64,000 nt of DNA, from positions 1,925 to 65,924 of the forward strand of contig CADCJQ010000002.1 in NCBI GenBank assembly GCA_902801795.1, in the 5' to 3' direction. Under the pieces are notes generated by a model. That model was not told the DNA's origin, did not search any database, and saw only the letters and a list, made by a program, of their open reading frames with translations. The stretch comes from an uncultured Erysipelotrichaceae bacterium. Lineage in GTDB: Bacteria > Bacillota_I > Bacilli_A > RF39 > UBA660. A program made the position numbers and the translations under genes. Shown here one piece after another: positions 3,552-52,307 of this stretch (positions are counted from its first letter, which is position 1; each line of letters begins with the position of its first letter).

Positions 3552-6500
3552 ATGTTAGAAATTAGAAAAATAACTAAAATATATGAAACGGATGGTTTTA
3601 AGCAAAAAGCCTTAGATGATGTTAGTGTAAACTTTCGTGAATGTGAGTTTGCATCTATTTTAGGGCCATCTGGTAGTGGAAAGACAACTTTTTTAAATAT
3701 TATTGGAGGATTAGATCATTATACATCAGGAGATTTAATAATAAATGAAATAAGTACTAAAAAATACAAAGATAGTGATTGGGATAGTTATCGTAATCAT
3801 CGTATTGGTTTTGTCTTTCAAAGTTATAATTTAATAAGTCATCAAAGTATTCTTTCGAATGTTATGTTAGCCTTAACATTATCCGGTATTAGTAAAAAAG
3901 AAAGTATAGCAAGAGCAAAAAAAGCCTTACGTGATGTTGGTCTTGAAAAACATATTAATAAAAGACCTAATCAGTTATCCGGAGGACAAATGCAAAGAGT
4001 GGCTATTGCAAGAGCCCTTGTAAATGATCCAGATATCTTATTAGCAGATGAACCAACGGGAGCTTTGGATTCTAATACTAGTGTACAAATAATGGATTTA
4101 TTAAAGGAAATTGCTAAAAAGAAATTAGTTATTATGGTAACTCATAATCCAGAACTTGCTAAAGAATATTCAACACGTATTATTACCCTTAAAGATGGTA
4201 AAATAACCAGTGATACTAATCCATATGATGGTAGAGTAGATACTAGTGATAATAATGAAGAAATAAAAGAAAAAACAAAGAAAACCAATATGTCTTTAAT
4301 AACAGCGTTATCATTATCATTTAACAATTTAATGACAAAAAAGGGAAGAACTGTTCTTGTTGCTTTTGCAGGAAGTATAGGAATTATTGGTATTGCTTTG
4401 ATATTAGCTTTATCGAATGGCTTTCAAAATTATGTTGATAAAATACAAGAAGATACATTAACTTCATATCCTCTTAACATTATGCAAGAATCAACGGATA
4501 TAACAGGAACTCTTCTTGCAATGACAACAAAAGAAAATGAAAAAACTAATGATGATAAAGTTTATGAACAACAATATATTACATCGATGTTAAAAAATAT
4601 TAGTACTAATGATTTGAAAAGTTTTAAAGGTTATTTGGAAAATAATTATAATGAAGTAGATAAAGATTTAGCGAATGTTAAAAATTCTTATAGTGTAGAA
4701 CCTCTTATTTATACAATTGATGGTACTAATAAAATTGCCAAAATTAATCCAAGTGATATGTATTCATCAATGTTTAGTGGTAATATGATGAGTAATTTAT
4801 CATCATTCTCTTCAGTATTTCGTGAAATGGTTGATAATCAAGATATGTTAAAAGAATCATACGAAGTATTAAAAGGACGTTTTCCGGAAAAATATAATGA
4901 ATTACTTATTGTTTTATCAGATGCTAATAGTATATCCGATTTACTTGTTTATTCATTAGGATTTCGTGATACAAAAGAATTATCAACGATGATTAATAAA
5001 ATAATGTCTGGTGAAAATGTAAATGTTAATAATGAACCATTAGTACTTACTTATGATGATTTATTAAATAAAGAATTAAAATTAATTATGCCAACAGATT
5101 TATATAAATATAATAGTAAATATGATATCTATGAGGATATGTCTGAAGATGAAAAATTTATGAAAAATATTTATGATAATGCCATTGATTTAAAAATTGT
5201 CGGTATTGTAACCGCTAAAGAAGGTACAACATCAATGGCTTTATCTCCTGGAGTAAGTTATCGTAGTGATTTAACTAAATATATTATTAATTATGCTAAA
5301 GATAAAGATATTGTTAAAAAACAACTTCGTGATACTAAAGTTGATGTTATTTCGGGAAAGAAATTTGAGGATGAAGGTAAAGGTTTAAATTTAGATTTTA
5401 AAGATTTAGTAACAGTTGATAACAAAAAAATAGAAAGTGCTTTTAATGTTAAAATAAATCAAAAAGATTTAGAAAACCAAACAATGAATTATATGAAAGA
5501 TATTACTAATTCTATTACCGCTAATATTGATCCGGCTTATGATGCTATAAAAAATGGTTTTAGTACACTTTTATTAGATTTAATAAATAATCTTGCTGAT
5601 AAGATATCTTCTAATGAAGTTAGTGATATAGTAACTAGTATTATTAATAATGAAAATGGTGAAAAAGTAGTTAGTGAATTAGAAAAAGAGTTTGTTATTC
5701 CTAAAGATATTTTTAAACAAACATATAGTGGTTTATTAAGTGGTTTTCTAAATATGTATGTTGAAAACTACAATAAAATGGTTCCTCAGGAAACAGAAGA
5801 TAATAGCGTATTAGTTAATAAAGATATGATGAAAATGATGGTCGATAGTTATAGTAATAATGTAATTATTGATGAGACATTTAAACAAATGGCAAGAAGA
5901 ATGACCGAAGCAAAAATGAATAAAGAAATACTTAGTAAAGTAGGGGATTTAACTGGTAATATTACCAAATCTTTTGCTAATGCTTTCTCCGTTGATGCAA
6001 GTAAAATAAGTGATGCTTTTCAGTTGAAATATTCTGAAGAAGAAATAACAAGAGTTGTTACATCAATGTTAAGTAATAAAGAATCTAGTGCAAAGACTAA
6101 TTTAATTAATTTTGGATATCAAGATTTTGATGAACCAACATATATGTCATTTTATTTTAATAGTTTTGATGGTAAAGAACATTTTCTTGATTTTCTTGAT
6201 AAATATAATGAAAAAGTAGAAGAAGATAAGAAACTTAATTTCTCGGATACAACAGGAATTCTTATGGATTCTGTTAAAACGATTGTTAATGCCGTTAGTT
6301 ATGTATTAATTGGTTTTGTATCAATATCTTTAGTTGTTTCTAGTATTATGATTGGAATTATTACTTATATTTCTGTATTTGAGAGAACAAAAGAAATTGG
6401 TATACTAAGAAGCATTGGAGCTTCTAAAAAGAATATATCATCTATTTTTAATGCTGAAACATTTATTATAGGATTATTATCAGGATTATTTGGTATTGGT

Positions 6501-6698
6501 ATATCATATAGTTTTATACCAATTATCAATGCCGTTATACATCACTTTACCGGTAATATTCCTTTAAGTGCGATGTTAAAATGGAATAATGCTCTTGTTT
6601 TAGTAATATTAAGTGTCTTTTTAACTTTAATTGGTGGATTAATTCCAGCAAGAAGTGCTAGTAAAAAAGATCCGGTTGAGGCTTTACGTAGTGAATAG
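3552..6698 (+). CDS. Fused ABC transporter ATPase/permease (MacB/FtsX type)
   Basis: 1048 aa. N-terminal Walker A GPSGSGKTT, signature LSGGQMQR, Walker B LLADEPTGALD. A long extracytoplasmic region follows, then a C-terminal FtsX-type 3-TM domain with RTKEIGILRSIGAS. Confidence 0.85.
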   Translation: MLEIRKITKIYETDGFKQKALDDVSVNFRECEFASILGPSGSGKTTFLNIIGGLDHYTSGDLIINEISTKKYKDSDWDSYRNHRIGFVFQSYNLISHQSILSNVMLALTLSGISKKESIARAKKALRDVGLEKHINKRPNQLSGGQMQRVAIARALVNDPDILLADEPTGALDSNTSVQIMDLLKEIAKKKLVIMVTHNPELAKEYSTRIITLKDGKITSDTNPYDGRVDTSDNNEEIKEKTKKTNMSLITALSLSFNNLMTKKGRTVLVAFAGSIGIIGIALILALSNGFQNYVDKIQEDTLTSYPLNIMQESTDITGTLLAMTTKENEKTNDDKVYEQQYITSMLKNISTNDLKSFKGYLENNYNEVDKDLANVKNSYSVEPLIYTIDGTNKIAKINPSDMYSSMFSGNMMSNLSSFSSVFREMVDNQDMLKESYEVLKGRFPEKYNELLIVLSDANSISDLLVYSLGFRDTKELSTMINKIMSGENVNVNNEPLVLTYDDLLNKELKLIMPTDLYKYNSKYDIYEDMSEDEKFMKNIYDNAIDLKIVGIVTAKEGTTSMALSPGVSYRSDLTKYIINYAKDKDIVKKQLRDTKVDVISGKKFEDEGKGLNLDFKDLVTVDNKKIESAFNVKINQKDLENQTMNYMKDITNSITANIDPAYDAIKNGFSTLLLDLINNLADKISSNEVSDIVTSIINNENGEKVVSELEKEFVIPKDIFKQTYSGLLSGFLNMYVENYNKMVPQETEDNSVLVNKDMMKMMVDSYSNNVIIDETFKQMARRMTEAKMNKEILSKVGDLTGNITKSFANAFSVDASKISDAFQLKYSEEEITRVVTSMLSNKESSAKTNLINFGYQDFDEPTYMSFYFNSFDGKEHFLDFLDKYNEKVEEDKKLNFSDTTGILMDSVKTIVNAVSYVLIGFVSISLVVSSIMIGIITYISVFERTKEIGILRSIGASKKNISSIFNAETFIIGLLSGLFGIGISYSFIPIINAVIHHFTGNIPLSAMLKWNNALVLVILSVFLTLIGGLIPARSASKKDPVEALRSE

Positions 6699-6732
6699 TA
6701 AGTTTATCTTACTATTTTTTTAATAGCAAATT

Positions 6733-6761
6733 TGCATTTTACTTTAAAATATAATATAATA
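6733..6761 (+). promoter_or_regulatory. Candidate sigma-A-type promoter for the sigma-gene cluster
   Basis: TTGCAT, 17 nt, TATAAT, downstream of the ABC-gene terminator hairpin at about 6695-6722. Confidence 0.4.
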
Positions 6762-6833
6762 TAAAACTTGAATTAATGGGTTATGGGGGATTATTGTGAG
6801 TAGTGATATTTATTTTTATGGAGATATGGAGAT

Positions 6834-7796
6834 TTGCCAGAAGTTTTAGATGATGATGAACAAAGAAGGTTATTAGAAGCAAGTATTAATGGTAGTGATG
6901 ATGCTAAAGGGAATTTACAAATACATAATTTACGTATAATAATTTATGTTATTAATAAATATTTTAATAATACTCAATATGAAAAAAGAGATTTATTTTC
7001 TATTGGATGTATGGGTTTAAGAAAAGCCATTAACACTTATGATTTAAATAAGAATATTAAATTTTTAACGTATGCATATAGATGTGTTTTTAATGAAATA
7101 GCTAATTTTTGTCGTGATAATAACAAGTATTATAAAGTTGATAGTTTGGATCGGGTTCTTTTTTCTAATAGAGATGGAAAGATAAAATTAAGTGATACTA
7201 TTTGTGATAAAAAAGATATTGCTAGTGAAATTGAAAGAAAAGAAATAAATAGAATTATTAGAGAAATAGTAAATAATCTTTCAGAAAGAGATAGAAAAAT
7301 TATTGAAATGTCTTTTGGCTTTAATGGAAAAATTTATAAACAAGAGGATATTTCTAAGATATTATTGGTGTCTCAATCATATGTTTCGAACATATTAATA
7401 GCAGCTTTATTTAGGATAAAAGAAAAACTAATTGAAGAAGAAATAATTGAAAGAGAAACTCAAAAGGAAGTAATAGTAAATGATATATCTGATAAAATAT
7501 TTGTAAGAAAAAGAAAAATACGAAGTGATGCGTATAAAAGTATTTATGAACATTTTAAAGAATATTCTAAAGAACAAATAGATGAAGTTATTAGTGAACT
7601 TTCTGAAAGAGAAAAAGAGATAATAAGTTATAAATATGGAAATGACTATGTAAGTCCAACATATATTATACTTAAAAAAAGTGTTAAAAATAGTTTTTTT
7701 CGTTTATTAAAAAAAATGAAATATATGCTATATAATAAAGAAAACAATATAATAAACAATGGAAATGGGGTGGACAATGAAATTATCGTTAAATGA
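6834..7796 (+). CDS. Sigma-70 family sigma factor (region 2 plus region 4) with an extra C-terminal module of about 100 aa
   Basis: TTG is the first available start after an in-frame stop at 6804, with GGAGA about 9 nt upstream. Region-2-like FSIGCMGLRKAINTYD...FLTYAYRCVFNEI. Region-4-like LSERDRKIIEMSFGF...ISKILLVSQSYVSNI. C-terminal SIYEHFKEYSKEQIDEVISELSEREKEIISYKYGND. Confidence 0.7.
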   Translation: MPEVLDDDEQRRLLEASINGSDDAKGNLQIHNLRIIIYVINKYFNNTQYEKRDLFSIGCMGLRKAINTYDLNKNIKFLTYAYRCVFNEIANFCRDNNKYYKVDSLDRVLFSNRDGKIKLSDTICDKKDIASEIERKEINRIIREIVNNLSERDRKIIEMSFGFNGKIYKQEDISKILLVSQSYVSNILIAALFRIKEKLIEEEIIERETQKEVIVNDISDKIFVRKRKIRSDAYKSIYEHFKEYSKEQIDEVISELSEREKEIISYKYGNDYVSPTYIILKKSVKNSFFRLLKKMKYMLYNKENNIINNGNGVDNEIIVK

Positions 7797-9918
7797 TATT
7801 AAAAAAATGGATAATGAATCTATTTATAAAATAATATTACCAGAAGTTAATAGTATTTTTGAAAAATATCGATATCTTTCATTGACAAGAAAAGAATATG
7901 ATGCTTTAGTTAATCAAGAAATAAGCAAGTCTAAAATAGAATATGATGGTAAGGTAAACTATTTAGTTTATATCAAGAAAAAAATTTCTTTGGCATTATT
8001 AATTAAATTGAGGGAAATGATTAATGATAATACATTTGAAATATTAAATAATTATATTAATGCTAATTTAAATAATGTAAAGAGTTCTTATGATGCAATA
8101 AAAAATATTAAGAAATTAGATACTTTATTAGAAAAAATAGATTTTATACCTAATTCTGATGTAATGGAAAAATTGTTAAAAAATAATAATTATCTTTCAA
8201 AAATGATTAGTTTATTATTTGAAGATTATAAAGAAAGTATTATTACTGGAAAAATAGATGAGATATTTGATAGTAATTGTTTATTAACTTTTCTTGAAAT
8301 ATATTGTTCAATAAATAATATAGAGATTAGAAATAATTTTGATACTATTGATTTTGAAGATAATGACGAAATTAATTATTCTAAAGGCATTAAAACATAT
8401 TTTAAAGATATGGGACAAATCGTGCTTTTATCAAGAGAAGAAGAAGTGATACTTGCCAAAAAAATTGCTAGTGGCGATGAAGAAGCAAGAGAAAAATTAG
8501 TTAAGAGCAATTTAAGATTAGTTATGAGTATAGTTAAAAAGTATTTAGATAGAGGATTGTCATATGAGGATTTAATACAAGAAGGTAATATGGGGCTTAT
8601 GAAGGCAACTTATTATTTTGATGCGGATAAGGGGTATCATTTTTCTACCTATGCTACATGGTGGATAAGACAAGCGATTACTCGTGCGATTGCCTATCAA
8701 ACAAAGTCAATAAGGATACCTGTACATATGATTAAAAAAATTAAATTTTATAAAAAAGTTGCGCTTGATTTGTCAAAAAAACTCAATCGTGAACCCAAAC
8801 TTGAAGAAATTGCTGAGGAAATGAATTTATCTTTAGAAAAAGTGCAACAATTATATGAATTACAGCTTGGTACTGTAAGTATAAATATGTTAGTAGGAGA
8901 AGATGAAGAAAGCGAACTGGAGGATTTTATACCAGTTTCTGATAAAACACCTGATGATAAAGTAATGAATAATATTTTAAATGAAGAAATAAAAAAATTG
9001 TTTGATGAAGCGAACTTAACAAATAATGAAAAAACAGTATTATTATTACGATTTGGATTTGATGGTAGAAGACCATTGATATTGAATGAGATAGGTCAAA
9101 TAATTGGGTTATCTCGTGAAAGAGTAAGACAAATTGAAGCACAAGGATTACTAAAATTAAGAAAAACAAAAAATATTGAAAATTTTGCTGTATATTTAGA
9201 TTATCCAGCGAAGGCTATTGAAAAAATAGAAGGTCTTATTGGAAAACCACATGATTCTTCAAAATTACCAGAACAAATTAAGAGCGAAAAGGAGAAAGAA
9301 AATATGAGAAAAATGCAATCTATTTATGAATTATTAAAAGGTTATACTAAGCAACAAATTGATGAAATGATTGAAAACTTAACTGATGATGATAAAAAAT
9401 TATTAAAAAAGAGATATGGTGATGATTTAAATAATCCTACATCTAATTTAATTCCATATTATGAAAAAAATAGATTTTACAGTTATTTAGTACCTAAAAT
9501 GAAATTAATGTTAGCTTCAAAGAATAATATTGATTTTATTGATAAAAAACAAGAAACAAAAGAAGTAATTCCTAATACTGCTTATGAAAAAAAGAGTATA
9601 GTTGTTAATAAAAAAGAAGAAGATAGTAGTAAAATAACTAAAGAGGCATATATGGAGTTATTAGAGGTACTTAGAACACCGACTTTTGAACAAATGACAA
9701 AAGCATTATCTGTAAAAGATGCGGTAATTATCTCTTTAAGATTAGGTTATATAGATGGAAAATATTATAGTATTGAAGCTATAGCCAATTTTTTAGGTAT
9801 TTCTTGTGAAGAAGTATCAGAAATAACTAAGAAAGTCTTGTATTTATATAGAGATACCTTTAATGATTATTTAGATAAAATAATTAATATTTCAGGTAAT
9901 GTAAAAGAATTAAAATAA
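7777..9918 (+). CDS. sigA: RpoD-like primary-type sigma factor with long N- and C-terminal extensions
   Basis: Textbook RpoD region 2: NLRLVMSIVKKYLDRGLSYEDLIQEGNMGLMKA...FSTYATWWIRQAITRAIA...IRIPVHM. Region 4: IGLSRERVRQIEAQGLLKLR. I prefer ATG 7777 (GGGGTGG upstream) to the track start 7759. About 200 aa follow region 4. The symbol is tentative. Confidence 0.75.
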   Translation: MKLSLNDIKKMDNESIYKIILPEVNSIFEKYRYLSLTRKEYDALVNQEISKSKIEYDGKVNYLVYIKKKISLALLIKLREMINDNTFEILNNYINANLNNVKSSYDAIKNIKKLDTLLEKIDFIPNSDVMEKLLKNNNYLSKMISLLFEDYKESIITGKIDEIFDSNCLLTFLEIYCSINNIEIRNNFDTIDFEDNDEINYSKGIKTYFKDMGQIVLLSREEEVILAKKIASGDEEAREKLVKSNLRLVMSIVKKYLDRGLSYEDLIQEGNMGLMKATYYFDADKGYHFSTYATWWIRQAITRAIAYQTKSIRIPVHMIKKIKFYKKVALDLSKKLNREPKLEEIAEEMNLSLEKVQQLYELQLGTVSINMLVGEDEESELEDFIPVSDKTPDDKVMNNILNEEIKKLFDEANLTNNEKTVLLLRFGFDGRRPLILNEIGQIIGLSRERVRQIEAQGLLKLRKTKNIENFAVYLDYPAKAIEKIEGLIGKPHDSSKLPEQIKSEKEKENMRKMQSIYELLKGYTKQQIDEMIENLTDDDKKLLKKRYGDDLNNPTSNLIPYYEKNRFYSYLVPKMKLMLASKNNIDFIDKKQETKEVIPNTAYEKKSIVVNKKEEDSSKITKEAYMELLEVLRTPTFEQMTKALSVKDAVIISLRLGYIDGKYYSIEAIANFLGISCEEVSEITKKVLYLYRDTFNDYLDKIINISGNVKELK

Positions 9919-9952
9919 GATATTGAAGACAGTAACAAAAGGGGGAAATAAA

Positions 9953-11164
9953 ATGATTAATGAATTATGTAACTATATCAATTGTCTTTTTAAAAATATT
10001 ACTAATTATCAAGATGTAATAATTGGTACCAACAAAATAGAGGAGTTTTTATTAAAGAATAATATAAAATTAGATACGTCATTAGCTGTTAAATTATTTA
10101 GAGAAAATGATTGTTTATTAGAAGCTTTTGATTTACTTTATTATTCTTTTGAAGATAGTATTAAAGAAAATAAATTAGATAATATTTCATCTTGTTATAC
10201 ATTATTATTTTTACTAAGGACATATTGTATTTTAAATGAAATAATTGTTGATATAGATAATATTAATGAAATACATATATTAAGTCATGAAGAAGAAATT
10301 ATTTTGATTAAAAGAATAAAAAAAGGGGATAAAGTTGCTTTAGAATATTTTATTCAATGTAATATGCCATTAGTAAAAAGAGTAGCTAAAATGTTTAATA
10401 CTTTTAGAATGACATATGAGGATTTAATTCAAGAAGGTTGTTTAGGATTAATGAGAGCAATTAACTTATATGATGAGGATTTAGGAAATAAGTTTTCATC
10501 ATATGCAACGGCTTGGATTTATCAAAGTATATCAAGAGCAATAGATAATAAAGAAAGAATGATAACGCTTCCTGTTTATTTAGTAGAGAAAATGAAAAAA
10601 TATATTAATACTAAAGATTACTTGTTTTGGAAATTAAAAAGAGAACCCAGTGATGAAGAAGTAGCAGAAGCTATGAATATTGATGTTAACGAATTAAAAA
10701 AATTTAAATCCTATTTTAATGATGCTTTAAGTTTAGATAAATTATTAAATGAAGATGCCGATATTACCTTTGGTGATGTCATTGAAGATGATGAATATGA
10801 TTTAGAAGAAATCATTGTAAAAGAAGATTTAAAAGAAGCGTTAAAACGTTTTATTGAAAGTTGTCATTTTGATGAAATAGAATTAAAAATTTTACAACTT
10901 AGATATGGTTTTAATAGTGATAGGTGTTATACACGTGCTGAAGTTGCTAAGTTGTTAAATGTAAATCGAGAAAGTATAAGACAAAGGGAAATAAAAATAT
11001 TAAAGAAAATGTTAAAAAATCAAGATGTTGACAACTTTATTATTTATATGCAAGATCCTAAAACAGCTTTAGAAAATTTATTATATTTAAGAGATAATTA
11101 TGTAAATAGTACTAACTATACAAGAAATTTAGAAAAGGCATTAAAGAAAAAGAATATTCAGTAG
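9953..11164 (+). CDS. Second RpoD-like sigma-70 paralog
   Basis: EDLIQEGCLGLMRAINLYD...FSSYATAWIYQSISRAI...ITLPVYL and region 4 VNRESIRQREIKILKKM. The N-terminal domain is paralogous to that of the preceding gene. ATG 9953 follows AAGGGGGA. Confidence 0.75.
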   Translation: MINELCNYINCLFKNITNYQDVIIGTNKIEEFLLKNNIKLDTSLAVKLFRENDCLLEAFDLLYYSFEDSIKENKLDNISSCYTLLFLLRTYCILNEIIVDIDNINEIHILSHEEEIILIKRIKKGDKVALEYFIQCNMPLVKRVAKMFNTFRMTYEDLIQEGCLGLMRAINLYDEDLGNKFSSYATAWIYQSISRAIDNKERMITLPVYLVEKMKKYINTKDYLFWKLKREPSDEEVAEAMNIDVNELKKFKSYFNDALSLDKLLNEDADITFGDVIEDDEYDLEEIIVKEDLKEALKRFIESCHFDEIELKILQLRYGFNSDRCYTRAEVAKLLNVNRESIRQREIKILKKMLKNQDVDNFIIYMQDPKTALENLLYLRDNYVNSTNYTRNLEKALKKKNIQ

Positions 11165-11177
11165 TGAATATCTTTTT

Positions 11178-11975
11178 TTATCCTAATAGAACATCAAGAA
11201 CCATCATAATAACAAAGCCAATTAAAGTAAACATTGATATTAGACCTTTATTTTTATTAGTTTGGCATTCTGGTATTAGTTCTTCAGCAACAACGTAAAT
11301 CATGGCACCAGCAGCGAATGCTAAGAAAAAAGGGAGAATAATTCTAACTTTAAGAACAAGTAGAGCGCCTATAATACCAGCGATAGGCTCAACTAAACCA
11401 CTTAATTGTCCATAAAAAAAGGCTTTATTACGACTCATTCCTTCACGTCTTAAGGGAACGCTTACAGCAACTCCTTCTGGAAAATTTTGGATGGCAATAC
11501 CAATAGCTAAGCCAATAGCACTCATGATAGTTGCGCCATCAATATTATATAAAACACTACCAAATGCCACACCAACTGCTAATCCCTCAGGGATATTATG
11601 TAAGGTTATTGATGATATAAGCATAAAGCATCTTCTTCGTTTATCAGAAATGGTTTTATTTTTTTTGGTAAATATTTTATCTATTAGAACAATTAATAAT
11701 CCACCACTAAGAAAACCAATTGAAGGGGCTAGTACTTTATTCATTCCAAGAGAAATAGCCATTTCAATAGAAGGGGAAAGCAGTGACCAGAATGAAGCGG
11801 CAATCATTACTCCGGCTGATATACTTAACATACAATCTAAAATATTTTTATTTACTTTCTTGAAAAAATAGACAATTGCGGATCCTAAAAGCGTTACAAA
11901 CCATGTTCCTAAAGTAGCGAGTAAAGCCATAAAAATAGGGGACATGGAATAGACATTATCCATAAACTTCACCAT
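11178..11975 (-). CDS. ZIP-family divalent metal (zinc) transporter
   Basis: 265 aa, multi-TM. HNIPEGLAVG and QNFPEGVAV are ZupT/ZIP-type signatures. Confidence 0.8.
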   Translation of the reverse strand: MVKFMDNVYSMSPIFMALLATLGTWFVTLLGSAIVYFFKKVNKNILDCMLSISAGVMIAASFWSLLSPSIEMAISLGMNKVLAPSIGFLSGGLLIVLIDKIFTKKNKTISDKRRRCFMLISSITLHNIPEGLAVGVAFGSVLYNIDGATIMSAIGLAIGIAIQNFPEGVAVSVPLRREGMSRNKAFFYGQLSGLVEPIAGIIGALLVLKVRIILPFFLAFAAGAMIYVVAEELIPECQTNKNKGLISMFTLIGFVIMMVLDVLLG

Positions 11976-13020: not shown

Positions 13021-14013
13021 ATGGTAAGTGAGAGGATAGTGGATAAAATGGGTGTTAATAAGGATTTTAAGAACTTAGAAGAACAAGTAGAGATCTTAAG
13101 AAATAAAGGTTTAACTGTTGAAAATCCTAATTATGCCATGGAAGTTTTGTTTAGAGAGAATTATTTCTTTTTAAATGGCTATCGTCACTTATTTATGAAA
13201 AGTTCTACTAATAGAACATATATTCCTGGAACAACTTTTGAAGAGTTGTATAGTTTGTTTCTATTTGATAGAGCCTTTCGTAATATTCTATTTAAGAATA
13301 TCTTAAATATAGAGAATAATTTAAAATCAATCATAAGTTATCATTTATCACTTAGATATGGTTATCACGAGAAAGATTATTTAAATTATCGTAATTTTAC
13401 GAATAATCCAGAGAGGTCAAGACAAGTAAGTGATGTTGTTAAAAAAATGAAAAGACAAATTAAATCTAATGCAGCATCGCATTCGGCAACTATGCACTAT
13501 GTTAATAGTTATGGTTATGTTCCTTTATGGGTTTTAGTTAAAGTTTTGTCTTTTGGAATAATTGGTGAACTGTATTCTATATTAAAAAAAGAAGATCAAA
13601 TAAGTATTGCGGACGTTTATGATTTAGATAGTGATACTCTGGGTAATTATATTGTTTTGTTATCAAATTATCGTAATTTATGTGCTCATGAAGATATTGT
13701 CTTTGAAAATCATACTCAAAGACAAATTGCAGATACGAAGATTCATCGTCAACTAAAAATACCAATTACAAATGATGAGTATATTTACGGTAAAAATGAT
13801 GTCTTTGCTTTAATCATTGTTATTAAGCAAATGTTATTATATGATGAATTTAAAAATATGATGTTAGAATTTAAACATATATTAGATAACTTAGAAATGA
13901 ATGTTAGAAGTATTCCTATAACTAAAGTTCTTGATAGAATGGGATTTCCAGATAACTGGGAAGAAATAATAGAATTAAATAAAAATGAAAAGAAGGTGTT
14001 TTATGAAAAATAA
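13021..14013 (+). CDS. Abi_2 (AbiD/AbiF-like) abortive-infection family protein
   Basis: The N-terminus EEQVEILRNKGLTVEN...NYFFLNGY and the YRNLCAHED motif fit the AbiD/F-type family. Alternative start at ATG 13048. Confidence 0.65.
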   Translation: MVSERIVDKMGVNKDFKNLEEQVEILRNKGLTVENPNYAMEVLFRENYFFLNGYRHLFMKSSTNRTYIPGTTFEELYSLFLFDRAFRNILFKNILNIENNLKSIISYHLSLRYGYHEKDYLNYRNFTNNPERSRQVSDVVKKMKRQIKSNAASHSATMHYVNSYGYVPLWVLVKVLSFGIIGELYSILKKEDQISIADVYDLDSDTLGNYIVLLSNYRNLCAHEDIVFENHTQRQIADTKIHRQLKIPITNDEYIYGKNDVFALIIVIKQMLLYDEFKNMMLEFKHILDNLEMNVRSIPITKVLDRMGFPDNWEEIIELNKNEKKVFYEK

Positions 14014-17697: not shown

Positions 17698-19599
17698 ATG
17701 AGTAAGAAGAATGTAATTATTTTAAGTGTGATATTTTTAGTTATGGTAATGATAGGTTCTTTGTTGTTTTTTAATAATGTGTTTATGAGAAATGATACTA
17801 GATTGAACAATGAAATACAATTAGGTGATAGAGAATGTGTAAGTAACTCAGATTGTGGTTCCGGGAAAAAATGTAAAGCTGGAAAATGTGAAGTTGATTC
17901 TTCATATTCAGGTGGAACAGAGTGTGGTACACATTCTGATTGTGGTAGTGGAAAAAAGTGTTATCAAGGTAAATGTATTATACCTTCTGAAAATACAAGT
18001 GATCCAAATGCATGTAAAAGTAATGTACCTAATTGTGATAGATGTGTTTCATATGATACAAGTTTGTGCGCTGTTTGTGTTACGGGGTATACTTTGAAAA
18101 ATAGCATGTGTTTAAGAAATGGAGATCCAACGGCAACGCCAATTCCAACTCCATCAAATACACCTGCAGTAACTCCAAGTTCTAATCCGACAAATACAGC
18201 AAATCCAACACCAAGTTCAACGAATACTCCTGGAGCAACAGCTAATGCTATTCCTAATGTTTGCTGTTATATTAGTGGAAGTTATGCAATAGTGCCAAAA
18301 AATGCATGTGATAATTTAGGAACAGATGTTTCTTCTAGTAATCCAAAATGTATTGTTCCAACAACTTCAGCATCAGCACAGCCAACGCCAACTCCTCCAA
18401 CATCACAAAATGATGATTTTGTTTGTTGTCATATTTCTAATAGTTATGCAATAATTAAGAAAAGTGGATGTAATCATTTAGGAAAAGAAGTTCCTTTTAG
18501 TAATCCGAATTGTAGTGGTTTATCTACTCCATCAGTTCAACCAACTGTGACAACTACTCCACCACCAATATCTAAAGAAGAAGTATGTTGTGATTGTGGT
18601 AATACCTTAGGATCAGCTTTAAGGTATTCTAAAAGAACTAGAGAAGAATGTGAAGGCTTAAGTCCTAATTGTTCAATTACTCAAGATTATACAAAGTGTG
18701 GTATGGAAAAACCAAATGAAACTGAGTATTGTTTTTATAAGACAAATTCTTTAGGTGCACAAATATATTGTTACGGTACTAAAACTGTATGTTCAGGATT
18801 TAGTGAAAATGATATAATAGACATATCAAAAGAAAATTGTAATGCTAGTTATTCATCAAAAAATCCATTTTCTACACCTAATGGTAATGATTCTGGAGAA
18901 AAAGAGTGTAAAAATAATGAAGATTGTGAAAATGGCTGGTGTAAAGCAGTTTTTGATTTGGCAGGTTTACATTATACAGGTAAAAATATATGTGTTCCAT
19001 TTAATAAACCAGTTGCTCAAGAAAGTTCAACAGGATGTTGTTATCCTGTTTCTGGAGATAAATATGTTTATAGTGATGATAGTAAATCAGTATCTCAGTG
19101 TGACTCTCTTGGTGGTTCAAAAGATAAGAGTGCAGAAGAATGCTTAGCGCAGAGTAAATATTGTTATTATAAAAATAATAGTGATGGTACTAAGGAATAT
19201 TGTTATGGAACGTCTTCTGATTGTCAAGGTTTTAGCGAAAAAGACTTAAATAGAACAAAATGGATATGTGATGATACTACTACTCAATTTTATATGTATT
19301 CTGAAAATACTACCTACAGTTCTAGTGTACCTGATGATTGTCAATATGTTGAAGGCATTTTAGTATCACCAGAGGCAAGTGAAAATTCATCTAATAAATT
19401 ATGTCAATATAATGCTTTAGATGATACTTCAAAATGTGATGGAAGTGATTCATGTTATCGTGTTGTTGAATATGTTAAAGAAAAGCATGAAACAAATGAT
19501 AATAAAAATTTGAAAATAGCAATATTTATTGCTTTATCAGGAATAATTGTTGCATCCGTTGTATATGCATATGTTACTTATGTAAGAAGAAAAAAATAG
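17698..19599 (+). CDS. Cysteine-rich surface protein with an N-terminal hydrophobic segment and a C-terminal TM anchor (distant member of the 50-57 kb family)
   Basis: 633 aa. Starts MSKKNVIILSVIFLVMVMIGSLLFF followed by NNEIQLGD. Contains duplicated SDCGSGKKC modules, CC-containing modules, Pro/Thr linkers and two YC[FY]YK..YCYG..C.GFSE modules. C-terminal TM plus RRKK. Confidence 0.7.
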   Translation: MSKKNVIILSVIFLVMVMIGSLLFFNNVFMRNDTRLNNEIQLGDRECVSNSDCGSGKKCKAGKCEVDSSYSGGTECGTHSDCGSGKKCYQGKCIIPSENTSDPNACKSNVPNCDRCVSYDTSLCAVCVTGYTLKNSMCLRNGDPTATPIPTPSNTPAVTPSSNPTNTANPTPSSTNTPGATANAIPNVCCYISGSYAIVPKNACDNLGTDVSSSNPKCIVPTTSASAQPTPTPPTSQNDDFVCCHISNSYAIIKKSGCNHLGKEVPFSNPNCSGLSTPSVQPTVTTTPPPISKEEVCCDCGNTLGSALRYSKRTREECEGLSPNCSITQDYTKCGMEKPNETEYCFYKTNSLGAQIYCYGTKTVCSGFSENDIIDISKENCNASYSSKNPFSTPNGNDSGEKECKNNEDCENGWCKAVFDLAGLHYTGKNICVPFNKPVAQESSTGCCYPVSGDKYVYSDDSKSVSQCDSLGGSKDKSAEECLAQSKYCYYKNNSDGTKEYCYGTSSDCQGFSEKDLNRTKWICDDTTTQFYMYSENTTYSSSVPDDCQYVEGILVSPEASENSSNKLCQYNALDDTSKCDGSDSCYRVVEYVKEKHETNDNKNLKIAIFIALSGIIVASVVYAYVTYVRRKK

Positions 19600-22089: not shown

Positions 22090-23517
22090 ATGAAGACAAT
22101 TCTTTTTTTGATTAATGGATTTGGTACTGAGGCTAAGGGCTCTTATTCTGTATATGATAGTGATACGATGCCTAATTTTGATAAACTAATGAAAAAATAT
22201 ATGTTTTCTACATTACATACGGATGTAAAAAATATTAATGATGGTTATCGAAATATGAGTTTAGAAGTAAATGGATTATATAATTATGATATATATTCAA
22301 GAGAAGCTGTAGAAAATAAAATAGTAAATAATGAAACATATTTAGATATCCAGAAAGAACTTAATGAAAGAAAAAGTAAATTACATTTATTTTGCTTTGT
22401 TGATACATCCATTAAAATAGTTGAGAATTTAAAAGATTTTTTAAAAAATATTAATAAAGAAAAAGATAAGAAAATCTTCTTACATTTAGTATTAGCAAGT
22501 AATAATTATGAAGATTATCCTAGTATTCAAGAAGTATTAAGTAAAATAAATATTGAATTACAAGGTTATGCTACTATTGGAATGGTTTTAGGACTTTCTA
22601 ATATTTTAAATAGTACGTCTCAAGTTGATATGAACTTTTTCTTACGTAATATGATAACAGAACTTGGTGAAAAGTGGCAGTCATTTAAACAAAAACTAGA
22701 TGTTAATTATGGGATGAAAACGGCTCCTATTTTAACAAAACCATTTGTTGTAAATACGGGATTTAGTATTGGAAATAATGATATGTTTATGATTTGGAAT
22801 TATGATAATATTGATATTTCAAATTTTATAGATAGTGTTAAAAGTATCGATTATAAAGAAGTACCTAATAGTATAAAATTTTATTCATTATTTCCAATAA
22901 CTTATAAAGAAACAATACCATTTATTTTACATTTTGAGGTTGCTAAACGTTCTCTTGCTAGCAATATGAAAGGTTTAGGATTTAAAAGTGTTGTCATGGC
23001 TAAGAAAAGTGATATTAGTGGTATTAACTATTATTTAAATGGAATGGAAATGGTTAATAATCCAGATATTACTTATATTGGTATTGAAGATGTTTTATAT
23101 AATAAAGAAATGATGGTTAATTTAATAAATCAATACACACAAGAATTAATAATTATTAATTATGATGTTATTGATGCTAAAAGTATTGAAGAATTAAAAG
23201 AAAATTTAAATAAAATAGATAGTGTATTAGGGGCAATATATGATAATACAGAGAAAAATAGTTACAATATTATTGTTTCATCTTTATATACTATTGATAA
23301 AGTATTAGAAAATAAAAATGGTGAAATATGTAATGTATTATATTCTAAAGTACCAATAATTTATGCTGATAACTTTATTACAAAGAAAACTCATTTAATA
23401 AATGATGGCAATATAAGTGAATTATTGAAAGTATGTTATAAAAGTATTAATAAAAAATATCCTGGTACAACAATAATTGAAAGAAAAAACTTTTTATATC
23501 GTTTGATTTTTAAATAG
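22090..23517 (+). CDS. Cofactor-independent phosphoglycerate mutase (iPGM)-like protein with substituted catalytic positions; function unknown
   Basis: 475 aa. Collinear blocks resemble GpmI: ILFLINGFG...MPNFDKL, KLHLFCFVD, DMFMIWNYDN, IIINYDVIDA, NIIVSSLYT. The Asp/Ser/His metal and phospho-acceptor positions appear replaced. Confidence 0.4.
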   Translation: MKTILFLINGFGTEAKGSYSVYDSDTMPNFDKLMKKYMFSTLHTDVKNINDGYRNMSLEVNGLYNYDIYSREAVENKIVNNETYLDIQKELNERKSKLHLFCFVDTSIKIVENLKDFLKNINKEKDKKIFLHLVLASNNYEDYPSIQEVLSKINIELQGYATIGMVLGLSNILNSTSQVDMNFFLRNMITELGEKWQSFKQKLDVNYGMKTAPILTKPFVVNTGFSIGNNDMFMIWNYDNIDISNFIDSVKSIDYKEVPNSIKFYSLFPITYKETIPFILHFEVAKRSLASNMKGLGFKSVVMAKKSDISGINYYLNGMEMVNNPDITYIGIEDVLYNKEMMVNLINQYTQELIIINYDVIDAKSIEELKENLNKIDSVLGAIYDNTEKNSYNIIVSSLYTIDKVLENKNGEICNVLYSKVPIIYADNFITKKTHLINDGNISELLKVCYKSINKKYPGTTIIERKNFLYRLIFK

Positions 23518-30105: not shown

Positions 30106-30457
30106 AAAAGTTATCCACAATAATTGTGGATAAAGATTGAATTAATTATTTAAAAATGTTATTGTGAATATGTCAAGGATAACTTAATATAATAAGAACA
30201 TACTAATAATCATAATATTATTAGTATGCTTTATTATTACCAAAAATAGTTATTCTAACGTAATATTAGAATATAAATAAACGTAAGTTACAAAAATATC
30301 ATCTTATGAAAAAAATCTTGTTTTAAACAATAATAGTGGAAAAAGTTTAATTAATAATTAATTACGTAAAGCAAGTATTTATAAATTAATTTTTATTTAT
30401 AAACCTTATTTACATATATTCTAATTTGTGGTAAATTATAATAGTTGGAGAGTTGTG

Positions 30458-31984
30458 ATGAGTAAAGAGATACAAGAAGATAAAGAAAAGAAAGATAATA
30501 ATATTGAAAAAAAAGAAAAGAAAAGTCTAGCGAGTGAAGATACTTATTTTAATTTACAAGATAGTTTAAAAGATTTGAATTATAAAAAAAGATTTGAAGA
30601 TAAAAAGGAAAAAGAAGAAATAGAAATTTTAGATTTTAATGATGATGAAGAAAATAAAAAGGAAAAAAATAATAAAAGTGTAGTAAAGAATAAGAAAGAA
30701 AAATCTAAGAAAAAACTTCGTAAGGGAGAAAAAATCTTTTTATTAATAAATATTTTAGTTATTTTGGGAATTATTGGCTTTTATGCATATCGTACAGTTT
30801 ATTATTATAAATTAAGTCACGAAGTAGAAGGAGAAATAACATTAAGAGATAAATTAACGGCACTTGATAATTTAGAGTTTCAAAATGATGGTCTTTATGA
30901 AAAAGATAAGTATTTCTATTATAAAGGTGTAAATGTTAATAACTATGTTTATTACTCTGGAAGAATGTATCGTATTATTGATATTGATAATGGTATTCGC
31001 ATGATTGATAGTGATACATCAACAAGTTTAGTTTATGGAGTAGATACAGATTATAGTAATTCTAATGTATATAATTGGTTAAAAGATTACTTAGAAACAT
31101 TAAAAGATTATGAAGTTTATTTACAAGAAAATAATTGGTGTAATGAAAAAATAGATGTTAATAATTATGATTGTCAAAAAACAATTAATAGTTATGTTGG
31201 TTTACTAAGTACTAAAGATTATTTACAAGCAGGTGGAAAAAACAGTTATTTAAATAATGAAACTTATTTTTGGACATTAAATGTTGATAAGGATAATAAA
31301 CCATTATTTATTAATAAAGAAGGTAGTATTAATAATGTTGTGTCAACAGAAGATAATTACTTTAGTTATGGTATAAGACCAGTTATTACTTTAAAAGATG
31401 AAGTTACTATTATTGATGGTGATGGTAGTTATGAAAATCCTTTTATTATAGAAAATATCGGTAACGCTTTATTAAAAGATAATGGTGTTGGTAGTTATGT
31501 AAAATATTATGGCGAAGATTATCGTATTTTGAAAATTGAAGATGATGGTGTAAGACTAATTAGTGATAATACTTTAGATGTTGAAAAGAATTATAAGGAA
31601 TTAGTTAAATATTTAAATGAAGAATATATAAAGAAATTTCCTAAAGATGATTTAGTTAAAATGAATTATATAGTTAATGAATATAATTTTAATAATAAAT
31701 ATAATTATAAAGATGTTAAAGAAACCTTGAGTGATTATGTAATTATTCCAAGTGTTGGAGATTTATTTTTGAATGATACAGATGGTTATTGGTTAAATAC
31801 TATTAATGATAGTAATTTAGGACTTTATTATACAGTTGATGAAAATAAAATGTTTTTTGGAGATTTAAGAAATAATAATCATAAAGTGCGTCCTATTATT
31901 AAAGTTAGTCATGATGTTGTTGCAAGTAGTGGAAAAGGTACGAAAGAAGAACCTTTAGTAATTGGTGATAATAATGTGGAATAA
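30458..31984 (+). CDS. Membrane-anchored protein with a Lys/Glu-rich N-terminus and two repeated extracellular modules ending in [IV]RP[VI]I (DUF6273-like pattern)
   Basis: GGAGAG lies 5 nt before ATG 30458. One TM (IFLLINILVILGIIGFYAY). Contains YFWTLN...GIRPVITL and GYWLNT...KVRPIIKV. Confidence 0.45.
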   Translation: MSKEIQEDKEKKDNNIEKKEKKSLASEDTYFNLQDSLKDLNYKKRFEDKKEKEEIEILDFNDDEENKKEKNNKSVVKNKKEKSKKKLRKGEKIFLLINILVILGIIGFYAYRTVYYYKLSHEVEGEITLRDKLTALDNLEFQNDGLYEKDKYFYYKGVNVNNYVYYSGRMYRIIDIDNGIRMIDSDTSTSLVYGVDTDYSNSNVYNWLKDYLETLKDYEVYLQENNWCNEKIDVNNYDCQKTINSYVGLLSTKDYLQAGGKNSYLNNETYFWTLNVDKDNKPLFINKEGSINNVVSTEDNYFSYGIRPVITLKDEVTIIDGDGSYENPFIIENIGNALLKDNGVGSYVKYYGEDYRILKIEDDGVRLISDNTLDVEKNYKELVKYLNEEYIKKFPKDDLVKMNYIVNEYNFNNKYNYKDVKETLSDYVIIPSVGDLFLNDTDGYWLNTINDSNLGLYYTVDENKMFFGDLRNNNHKVRPIIKVSHDVVASSGKGTKEEPLVIGDNNVE

Positions 31985-35908: not shown

Positions 35909-35961
35909 GAATATTTTCTTAAAATATTGACAAAATAATAATAAGTGCATAAAATAATGTT

Positions 35962-36226
35962 ATAAATCTTTGATGAAGAGAAGTAGTATTAATAAACTTA
36001 TTAGCGAGTTAACAATTGGTGAGAGGTTAACAAAGAAATATTAATATGAATAACACTTTGGAGAGCTTATCTGAAATAGAAGTAGGATTGCCGGGTATTT
36101 ACCGTTATAAAAATTGAGGTTATAAGACCGATAAGAGTGGTTACGTAAAGTAACAAAATGGGTGGTACCGCGAATTCAAGAGTCATTCGTCCCTTTGTGG
36201 ATAGAGACTCTTTTTTAATTATTATT
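35962..36226 (+). promoter_or_regulatory. T-box leader (Asn specifier) controlling asnS
   Basis: Promoter TTGACA, 17 nt, TAAAAT at 35927-35955. Stem I elements are present (AGCGAG, GGTGAGAGG). GAAUAACA in the specifier region offers AAU/AAC. The T-box core aaatgggtggtaccgcg is at 36156-36172. A terminator aagagtc...gactc plus T6 follows. Confidence 0.8.
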
Positions 36227-36242: not shown

Positions 36243-37616
36243 ATGGACGTAAAAGAATTATTTGAAAAAATTGAAGAATTGATGGATAAAGAAGTAACTT
36301 TATCGGGATGGGTAAGAAACCATCGTAAACAAAAAGAATTTGGTTTTATTGATTTTTCTGATGGAACTTGTTTTAAACATGTTCAACTTGTTTATACGGA
36401 TAAGTTAGATAGTTTTGATGAAATAAGTAAAATTAAAATTGGTTCTAGTATTGAGGTAGTTGGAAAAGTTATTAAATCAGAAGGATCTGGACAAGATTTT
36501 GAAATTAGTGTTCAAAGTATTAAATTATTAGGTGATTGTCCTGATGAATATCCTATTCAACCTAAAAGACATACGAGAGAATTTTTAAGAGAAGAAGCTT
36601 ATTTAAGACCAAGAACGAATCTTTTTCAAGCGGTATTTCGTGTACGTAGTGTAGCGGCTATGGCAATTCATACTTATTTTCAAGATAGGGGATACGTATA
36701 CTTTCATGCACCATTAATTACAGCAAGTGATTGTGAAGGAGCAGGTCAAATGTTTCAAGTAACAACACTTGATTTAGCAAGAATAGCCAAAGATGGAAAA
36801 GTAGATTATACGAAAGATTTCTTTGGTAAAACCGCTGCTTTAACAGTATCAGGTCAACTTGAAGCAGAAACTTTTGCGATGGCTTATAAAAAAACATATA
36901 CTTTTGGACCAACATTTAGGGCAGAAAACTCTAATACTAAAACGCATGCTAGTGAATTTTGGATGATTGAACCAGAAATTGCCTTTTGTGATTTAGAAGG
37001 TGTAATGGATGTTGAAGAAGATATGTTAAAGTATATTGTTAAATATGTTCTTGATAAATGTCCTGATGAAATGGCATTCTTTGATAGTTTTGTGGAAAAA
37101 GGTTTACTTGACAAATTACATAAATTACTTGACAGTAAGTTTACAAGAATTAGTCATCATGATGTTATAAAAATATTAAAAGAAGCTAAAGTTAAATGGG
37201 AATTTGAGCCAGAGTATGGTGAAGATATTGCTAAAGAACATGAAAAATATATTACAGATTACTTTAATGGACCAGTATTTATTACTAATTGGCCAAAAGA
37301 TATTAAAGCCTTTTATATGAAACAAAATGATGATAATGAAACCGTTGCGGCTGTTGATTTGGAAGTACCAGGAGCAGGTGAATTAATAGGTGGTAGTCAA
37401 AGGGAAGAAAACTATGATAAATTAGTTCGTCGAATGGAAGAACTTGGTATGGAAAAAGAAAGTATGGAGTGGTATTTGAATCTTCGTAAATATGGAGGTT
37501 GTGTTCATTCAGGATTTGGCATGGGCTTTGAGAGATTACTTATTTATTTAACTGGAATAGAGAATATTCGTGATGTTATTCCTTATCCAAGAACGCCAGG
37601 AAATTGTGAATATTAA
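36243..37616 (+). CDS. asnS: Asparagine--tRNA ligase
   Basis: 457 aa, class IIb. FRAENSNTKTHASEFWMIEPE and GFGMGFERL. Confidence 0.95.
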   Translation: MDVKELFEKIEELMDKEVTLSGWVRNHRKQKEFGFIDFSDGTCFKHVQLVYTDKLDSFDEISKIKIGSSIEVVGKVIKSEGSGQDFEISVQSIKLLGDCPDEYPIQPKRHTREFLREEAYLRPRTNLFQAVFRVRSVAAMAIHTYFQDRGYVYFHAPLITASDCEGAGQMFQVTTLDLARIAKDGKVDYTKDFFGKTAALTVSGQLEAETFAMAYKKTYTFGPTFRAENSNTKTHASEFWMIEPEIAFCDLEGVMDVEEDMLKYIVKYVLDKCPDEMAFFDSFVEKGLLDKLHKLLDSKFTRISHHDVIKILKEAKVKWEFEPEYGEDIAKEHEKYITDYFNGPVFITNWPKDIKAFYMKQNDDNETVAAVDLEVPGAGELIGGSQREENYDKLVRRMEELGMEKESMEWYLNLRKYGGCVHSGFGMGFERLLIYLTGIENIRDVIPYPRTPGNCEY

Positions 37617-52208: not shown

Positions 52209-52210
52209 GA

Positions 52211-52239
52211 AAGAATGAAAAAAATTTTCATTCTTTTTT
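52211..52239 (+). terminator. Rho-independent terminator
   Basis: aagaatgaaaa / ttttcattctt perfect 11-bp stem followed by a T-run. Confidence 0.75.
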
Positions 52240-52307
52240 CTATATTTTGTTGATTTAGTTTCTGCTTTTAAGTATAATAATATTATAAGAAGGATAGGTA
52301 TTAGTAT

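Follow-up and report, generated by a model that had tools for sequence, protein, structure and literature searches.

Tandem sigma factor genes of an uncultured gut Firmicute encode a repeatable tail derived from sigma region 4

Besides their conserved core, bacterial sigma factors are known to carry region 1.1, the non-conserved region or, in some extracytoplasmic function (ECF) sigma factors, a C-terminal extension. In the ECF41 and ECF42 types, the extension is a SnoaL-like or TPR domain on an ECF core. Here we describe three consecutive sigma-70 genes (sig1, sig2 and sig3) on a 64,000-nucleotide stretch, referred to as the window, of contig CADCJQ010000002.1 in GenBank assembly GCA_902801795.1. 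The host is an uncultured low-GC (~25%) Firmicute of the ruminant gut, in which the genes form a conserved, operon-like array. The products of sig1 and sig2 carry after region 4 a module that is homologous to the first half of region 4, and the sig2 product ends in a cap ('c4') that is a region-4 paralog.

The sig2 product resembles SigA/RpoD in having regions 1.2, 2, 3 and 4, with 2.4 and 4.2 motifs near-identical to those of Bacillus subtilis SigA, but differs by a 194-amino-acid (aa) helical domain in place of region 1.1, by a 240-aa tail past region 4 and by a gene that does not lie beside dnaG. The best family matches of the sig1 product are SigE and SigK, from which it is set apart by its C-terminal module, the lack of a pro-sequence and scores below the family cutoffs. 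A functional analogy is possible with ECF41 and ECF42, in which a C-terminal fusion, and not a separate anti-sigma factor, modulates sigma activity; the extension described here is, however, region-4-derived, repeated and placed on group-1-like and group-3-like cores. Assignment to ECF sigma factors with an extension was rejected, as the best NCBIfam matches were SigE/K and RpoD with no specific ECF group, and the extension contained no Pfam domain. All three window proteins match MzaA, which serves the MZA anti-phage system as sigma factor and is likewise a long sigma-70-family protein with extra domains. Identity with MzaA was also rejected: only profile positions 421–676, the sigma core, are matched (273.7 bits against an NCBIfam cutoff of 800), MzaA bears an unrelated extension at its N-terminus, and MZA partner genes are missing around the array. 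Finally, the module shares with region 4 as remodelled by the phage T4 protein AsiA (PMC2988021) the succession of helices H1–H2 and one long helix. This likeness is one of architecture only, and the module is a stable, genetically encoded domain instead of an induced conformation.

The C-terminal tail and its relation to region 4

The initial annotation, made from the sequence alone, had proposed that the first two proteins share a module after region 4. This is borne out by a single BLASTP alignment in which residues 233–304 of the sig1 product pair with residues 518–590 of the sig2 product, and independently by a hidden Markov model (HMM) that was built from sig2 homologs with sig1 excluded and matches sig1 with a domain E of 5.3e-18. 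Profile comparison by hhalign placed module positions 14–43 on positions 4–35 of the family's true region 4 (probability 88.9%, P 2.4e-6), and a profile search of the PDB aligned module positions 15–40 with the 26 residues that open region 4 in a SigA chain of known structure. In the confident AlphaFold2 (AF2) model (predicted local distance difference test, pLDDT, ~90), the module starts with two short helices, continues with a 4.1-like helix and ends in a single long one. A complete region 4 including the helix-turn-helix (HTH) was not found in the module by hhalign, Pfam or AF2, and Pfam Sigma70_r4 aligned with its profile positions 2–20 only, under threshold. Taken together, the hhalign, PDB profile and AF2 results show that the 73-aa module represents the first half of region 4, with helices H1–H2 kept and the HTH replaced by a single long helix. 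A copy of region 3, as hinted at by Foldseek alignments spanning regions 3–4, was rejected by hhalign (probability 0.2%). The modules are near-neutral, not basic, and their charges are polarised into a dipole, the first half being acidic and the last helix basic. Module, cap and N-terminal domain all lack a curated family in Pfam, NCBIfam or PHROG, and the module is thus distinct from any already annotated sigma-associated domain. A weak NCBIfam match to the MG284/MPN403 C-terminal domain (E 0.021) gave no lead in the literature.

The region-4-like HTH noticed at the extreme C-terminus of the sig2 product is a true region-4 homolog, as the cap aligns with PDB 1tty (E 8.7e-6) and with region 4 in hhalign (probability 96%), and superposes on 1rio_H in Foldseek with a root-mean-square deviation of 1.4 Å over 52 columns (template modelling score 0.75). 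With the module related to the first half of region 4 and the cap to the whole of it, the suspicion that the additional domains are region-4-derived and non-standard was well founded. A residue census set 151 unique caps against the true region 4 of the same protein set (147 unique sequences). The true region 4 has the consensus T/S-R(73%)-E-R(70%)-I/V-R(69%)-Q(71%), and the cap at the equivalent positions reads D/E/S-E(38%)-x-E(75%)-V-I/L(52%)-E/N/D. The cap therefore lacks the -35-contacting Arg/Arg/Arg/Gln of the recognition helix, which the true region 4 of the same proteins keeps. In known structures, these Arg and Gln residues touch the -35 element. A structure of sigma region 4 with -35 DNA, 1KU7, is cited in PMC2988021. 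The cap is also net acidic (isoelectric point, pI, 5.4), and we infer that it is probably 'DNA-blind'.

Between sig2 and its closest ortholog (P0002), the cap is the most conserved segment of the protein (85% identity), followed by region 2 (67%) and by region 4 and the module (59% each), and the linkers retain 16–30%. Cap and module are thus conserved like essential sigma regions or more while the linkers drift, and the extra domains are therefore under purifying selection. Both additions to sig2, the N-terminal domain and the tail, are lineage-specific, and the tail appears to have arisen through partial duplication of the region 4 of sig2 itself.

Within sigma-70 region 4, the beta-flap is contacted by residues of, or close to, helices H1, H2 and H5, and the HTH motif (H3-turn-H4 according to the legend of figure 3) binds the -35 element; binding of AsiA converts the HTH into one continuous helix, and contacts with -35 DNA and the flap are both lost (Hinton 2010, PMC2988021). 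Because the module keeps H1–H2, the flap-contacting half, and a long helix replaces the HTH, we favour, with somewhat less than even confidence, the reading that the tail binds protein and not DNA, namely the region-4 docking site on core polymerase or region-4 partners. For the partner and the effect on transcription we infer that the tail would engage the beta-flap tip of the RNA polymerase core, or region-4 partners, and would thereby adjust how the holoenzyme forms and how sigma factors compete.

The initial annotation had instead considered modular promoter recognition. If the cap, and perhaps the modules, acted as extra heads that bind further upstream DNA, the sigma factors would acquire a composite promoter specificity, as might be expected from the intact HTH fold of the cap, a conserved K-K pair at the end of its recognition helix, and the basic character of the module's C-terminal helix and of the inter-module linkers. 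We regard this as quite unlikely given that Glu, Glu, Ile/Leu and Glu/Asn/Asp stand where region 4 has its -35-contacting Arg/Arg/Arg/Gln, that the cap is acidic and the modules near-neutral, and that the module is devoid of an HTH.

Family architectures and the possible action of the tail

About 50 unnamed metagenomic proteins of 590–830 aa have the full architecture of the sig2 product, and SigE/K-like sig1 homologs of 444–506 aa carry the same module and cap; the sig1 lineage of the window has lost its cap. An exhaustive HMMER search of 1.84 billion cluster representatives with the module profile retrieved 1244 proteins at E ≤ 1e-3, 801 of them at E ≤ 1e-10. By domain census, the best 149 of these 1244 proteins showed three architectures: [N-terminal domain]-r2-r3-r4-(module)n-cap, r2-r4-(module)n-cap and sigma-less (module)n-cap. 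In these 149, n ranges from 1 to ~17, the array is usually closed by a cap, and the proteins reach 1987 aa. An RpoD-like sigma factor of 1415 aa (P0179), for example, has 10 modules. The modules are arranged as beads-on-a-string with short basic inter-module linkers. Many sigma-less arrays start with 'M..K(T/S)IYEYF', like free-standing single-module proteins (~90 aa), and because of these similar N-termini the sigma-less arrays look complete. One such free-standing single-module gene (92–104 aa; L085 6001–6279 and L088 6001–6315, contigs from human-gut and other metagenomes) occupies a conserved housekeeping locus with the order rpoB-rpoC, metG, module gene, a 350-aa gene without Pfam match, and hrcA-grpE-dnaK.

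Two otherwise near-identical sigma factors, P0003 with two modules and P0009 with one, are exactly one whole module apart (alignment A1, columns 600–800), which suggests that module copy number changes between strains by recombination. Another contig (L084 6169–9794) encodes two tandem sigma factors of 602 and 597 aa, each with the N-terminal domain, core and one module and without a cap. The tail had no tblastn match in phage or plasmid collections and none in IMG/VR (exact-pattern seeding), and a mobile-element origin of the tail is therefore unsupported. Family members were sampled from ruminant, rabbit and human gut. The tail is an autonomous, copy-number-variable cassette that occurs on RpoD-like sigma factors, on SigE/K-like two-domain sigma factors and free-standing, and the window array, with one module per tail, represents the smallest end of a large family with tandem arrays and sigma-less versions.

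Family architecture also bears on the proposal that the array is a self-regulating set, which is possible. In the free sigma factor, cap and/or module could fold onto region 2, region 4 or the N-terminal domain of the same protein and inhibit it in the manner of region 1.1 or ECF41-type extensions, until released by core binding or a signal. Disordered linkers permit such fold-back, the tail often co-occurs with the N-terminal domain, region-4-derived parts could pair with surfaces normally packed against region 4, and ECF sigma factors offer precedents for regulation in cis by a C-terminal extension. The existence of sigma-less arrays and single free-standing modules implies, however, that the unit also works in trans, and 1 to ~17 copies would be odd for a one-to-one intramolecular lock. 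Tails further occur on sigma factors without the N-terminal domain, and the sig3 product has half of this domain and no tail. We therefore consider built-in autoinhibition unlikely.

The tandem arrays themselves could point to a self-associating, multivalent scaffold whose modules bind each other or a small multicopy partner and thereby form transcription hubs. Multivalent scaffolds typically show such a beads-on-a-string organisation with short linkers and many copies, here up to ~17; the charges of each module form a dipole, and sigma-less arrays coexist with tailed sigma factors in the family. Self-interaction is hypothetical, however, and the window proteins hold one module each, too few for multivalency, which makes this explanation very doubtful.

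Several points also weigh against the favoured protein-binding tail. Binding of the flap or of other partners by module or cap is hypothetical, and the conserved 'RYG' motif may be mere fold core. The AF2 alignment for the tail was shallow (14 sequences) and did not predict the relative placement of the domains (predicted template modelling score, pTM, 0.37). The K-K pair late in the recognition helix of the cap makes some contact with DNA or RNA possible. Moreover, each polymerase has one flap, and arrays of ≥10 flap binders would need avidity, clustering or another ligand.

Sigma cores, the start of sig1 and gene context

The three sigma-70 open reading frames (ORFs; 6834–7796, 7759/7777–9918 and 9923/9953–11164) share one orientation. 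Starts at 7777 and 9953 are favoured by ribosome-binding sites and by the homolog N-termini 'MELxL/MKLSL', and result in the 20-nucleotide (nt) overlap of sig1 and sig2 and the 34-nt gap between sig2 and sig3 that had been noted initially. Feature coordinates are compiled in Table 1. Pfam gathering thresholds were passed for Sigma70_r2 and r4 in all three proteins, for r3 in the sig2 and sig3 products and for r1.2 in the sig2 product.

Table 1. Positions of the sigma array, its domains and associated features in the window
Feature	Position	Strand	Basis and remarks
MacB-type ABC transporter (ATPase and FtsX permease)	3552..6698	+	ORF; 1048-aa ortholog with PF00005 and PF02687 in L091, L092 and L094
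Candidate sigma-A-type promoter, TTTGCA-18-TATAAT	6731..6760	+	Consensus scan, 10/12 matches in an AT-rich region where shuffled sequence yields such matches about as often; sole intergenic gap upstream of the array
Ancestral sig1 start, GTG 6796 preceded by GGGGGA, now out of frame	6796..6833	+	DNA alignment with sister contig L094
sig1, SigE/K-like sigma factor; r2 and r4, one C-terminal module, no cap	6834..7796	+	Pfam, NCBIfam, homolog alignment A3
sig1 module, aa 236–304, 'SIYEHFKEYSKEQIDEVISELSEREKEIISYKYG...LLKKMKYML'	7539..7745	+	BLASTP against sig2; module HMM
sig2, SigA/RpoD-like sigma factor, N-terminal domain and C-terminal tail	7777..9918	+	713 aa from ATG 7777; 719 aa from ATG 7759
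sig2 all-helical N-terminal domain, ~194 aa, in place of region 1.1	7777..8358	+	Conserved across family alignment A1
sig2 sigma core	8389..9198	+	r1.2 8389–8484, r2 8497–8703, r3 8737–8958, r4 8971–9198; Pfam and alignment to solved SigA structures
sig2 module, aa 521–590, four helices, last long	9319..9528	+	AF2, hhalign, PDB profile search
sig2 linker between module and cap, variable, predicted disordered	9529..9639	+	pLDDT 30–33; 16% identity to closest ortholog; length varies in the family
sig2 cap 'c4', aa 628–712, region-4 paralog	9640..9894	+	PDB 1tty, Foldseek, hhalign, residue census
sig3, diverged RpoD-like sigma factor, half N-terminal domain, no tail	9953..11164	+	403 aa from ATG 9953; Pfam r2, r3, r4

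The description of the middle gene as RpoD-type in regions 2 to 4 agrees with Pfam and with the alignment of the sig2 core to B. subtilis SigA (PDB 7ckq_F, E 3.3e-75), from which it hardly differs in regions 2.4 ('FSTYATWWIRQAITRAI') and 4.2 ('LSRERVRQIEAQGLLKLR'). As the contact residues are conserved, the sig2 product should read ordinary -35/-10 promoters. Region 1.1 (PF03979) had no Pfam match in the sig2 or sig3 product, whereas the ordinary RpoD homologs found do carry PF03979. Scores of the sig2 product lie under the NCBIfam RpoD equivalog cutoffs (NF006666, 308.7 vs 572 bits; TIGR02393, 292.8 vs 354 bits). Lacking region 1.1, equivalog-level scores and a dnaG neighbourhood, it fails several features of group 1. 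The AF2 model of the domain that takes the place of region 1.1 has 11 helices (pLDDT 91.2, pTM 0.83) and no significant structural match in PDB or BFVD. A degenerate sigma factor was rejected as its origin by hhalign, which found no relation to sigma regions. Its best, insignificant Foldseek matches include small ECF-type sigma factors, 1or7_A and two phage sigma factors (E 3–10); they serve as a lead only, by which the domain might still be a very degenerate sigma-like unit.

The third gene had been called a diverged RpoD-like copy, in line with its Pfam domains, a match to NCBIfam RpoD_Cterm (E 1.6e-55) and 31% identity to sig2. Regions 2.4 and 4.2 of its product are altered ('AWIYQSISRAI' and 'NRESIRQREIKIL'), and SigA-type -10/-35 recognition residues are not conserved. 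An N-terminal domain of about 200 aa had been proposed as common to the second and third proteins; this holds for its second half (~105 aa) and not for the full length, with the domain HMM matching the sig3 product over HMM positions 86–189 (E 2.6e-10).

The sig1 product contains Sigma70_r2 (aa 31–98) and Sigma70_r4 (aa 148–196), and r3 was not detected at the Pfam gathering threshold. It had been thought to be a group 3 factor of the SigF/G/B type, from which NCBIfam departs: SigE (131.8 bits, E 2.6e-38) and SigK (128.2 bits, E 2.8e-37) are closer than SigB/F/G (3e-27). Equivalog-level scores for SigE and SigK were not reached, being far under the NCBIfam cutoffs of 339 and 252 bits, respectively. 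A pro-sequence of ~20–27 aa does not fit, with the start of the intact ortholog just 10 residues upstream of the window TTG. This ortholog starts with 'YFYGDLPEVLDDDEQ', which presumably resembles the mature N-terminus of SigE/SigK. Sporulation genes adjoin family members on other contigs. In one metagenome-assembled genome (MAG), a relaxase, a sortase and an integrase (L089 1733–6980), resembling an integrative-element block, are encoded directly upstream of a sig1-type tailed sigma factor.

An 8-bp tandem duplication (ATGGAGAT x2, ~6817–6824) shifts the frame of the first 12 sig1 codons relative to sister strains and is missing from contigs of sequencing runs X1, X2 and X5 and from sister contig L094. 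The intact product has 330 aa (P0139). In the window, the ancestral GTG and its GGGGGA ribosome-binding site now open a 17-codon dead-end ORF, and sig1 can start solely at a TTG without a well-spaced ribosome-binding site. In view of the duplication and the poor start, this genome may hold an impaired sig1; alternatively, a local assembly error may be at fault.

This duplication is also what speaks for regarding the whole array as an artefact or decaying junk, be it misassembly, read-through or functionless degenerate duplications. Independent assemblies contain the array intact and collinear: an 8.4-kb contig from bovine-gut run X1 is collinear over 6726–11400, and two contigs from sheep-gut run X2 span the array at 2–3% divergence, with sig2 and sig3 free of frameshifts. 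The gene order ABC transporter, sig1, sig2, sig3 and ZIP transporter is kept in a sister species (L091, L092), where the array is conserved at ~60% identity (sig2 60%). Considering also the far higher identity of module and cap than of linkers to the closest ortholog and the presence of the module in 1244 protein clusters, we hold an artefact to be highly improbable, and the array as such is not a misassembly. In a rabbit-gut MAG of 'uncultured Bacilli' (L045), a sig1-type gene lies immediately upstream of a sig2-type gene. This was the sole family member recovered in a scan of genome contigs with alignment A1, which otherwise yielded mostly ordinary RpoD genes because the scan patterns were universal region-2 motifs. 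The same scan with sig2 as sole query found no relatives, and an exact-sequence look-up of the window sig2 product returned no record. In a search for RNA evidence, the locus turned up in a single run, of unknown type, whose contigs carry no information on transcription or operon structure.

The array follows a MacB-type ABC transporter and not dnaG, as initially described; the ABC_tran and FtsX annotation of the ortholog confirms the identity of this neighbour. Primary sigma genes are usually found in a dnaG-rpoD operon. No primase domain was matched in ten other large window ORFs scanned with Pfam, four of which were without any Pfam match. The window has a G+C content of ~25% throughout and looks chromosomal, with FtsX, a cold-shock protein, ribosomal protein S4, a Mur ligase and a T-box leader present. 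The latter (Rfam RF00230, 120.9 bits) lies at 35961–36197, upstream of an ORF at 36243–37616. Downstream of the sigma array, past the ZIP transporter gene and a phospholipase-C-like gene, a 330-aa ORF (13021–14013) has an ortholog with an Abi_2 (abortive-infection) domain in sister contig L091. Three consecutive large ORFs at 50118–55710 with SpaA prealbumin-like and Ephrin_rec_like domains may form a surface, pilin-like cluster, and four large ORFs of 475–945 aa (17698–19599, 22090–23517, 30428–31984 and 42095–44932) had no Pfam match at E ≤ 1e-5.

Meaning for the sigma factor family

In the literature on sigma extensions, repeats and region-4 duplication, no description of the cassette was found. 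What is new here is an autonomous, repeatable cassette built from a sigma factor's own region 4, present on primary-like and sporulation-like sigma factors and also free-standing. Sigma factors are among the best-charted bacterial proteins, and proteins with this cassette reach ~2000 aa, yet the cassette has no model in Pfam, NCBIfam or PHROG. The window copy, a minimal form, is valuable mainly because it points to a family of sigma factors that are modular, sometimes giant and so far unannotated. Defining the N-terminal domain, module and cap as families would improve the annotation of >1000 metagenomic protein clusters.

The cassette, with 1 to ~17 half-region-4 modules and a DNA-blind cap, could even constitute an undescribed class of RNA-polymerase-directed scaffold, a proposal that we advance as speculative and on balance unlikely. 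If it is true, a sigma-fused cassette would provide a multivalent grip on core polymerase or cluster polymerases, and a free-standing cassette would be a novel type of regulator that acts globally on sigma competition in uncultured gut Firmicutes. Should the tail make contact with polymerase, it would represent a new way of biasing sigma competition and of organising polymerase in small-genome, poorly regulated gut bacteria.

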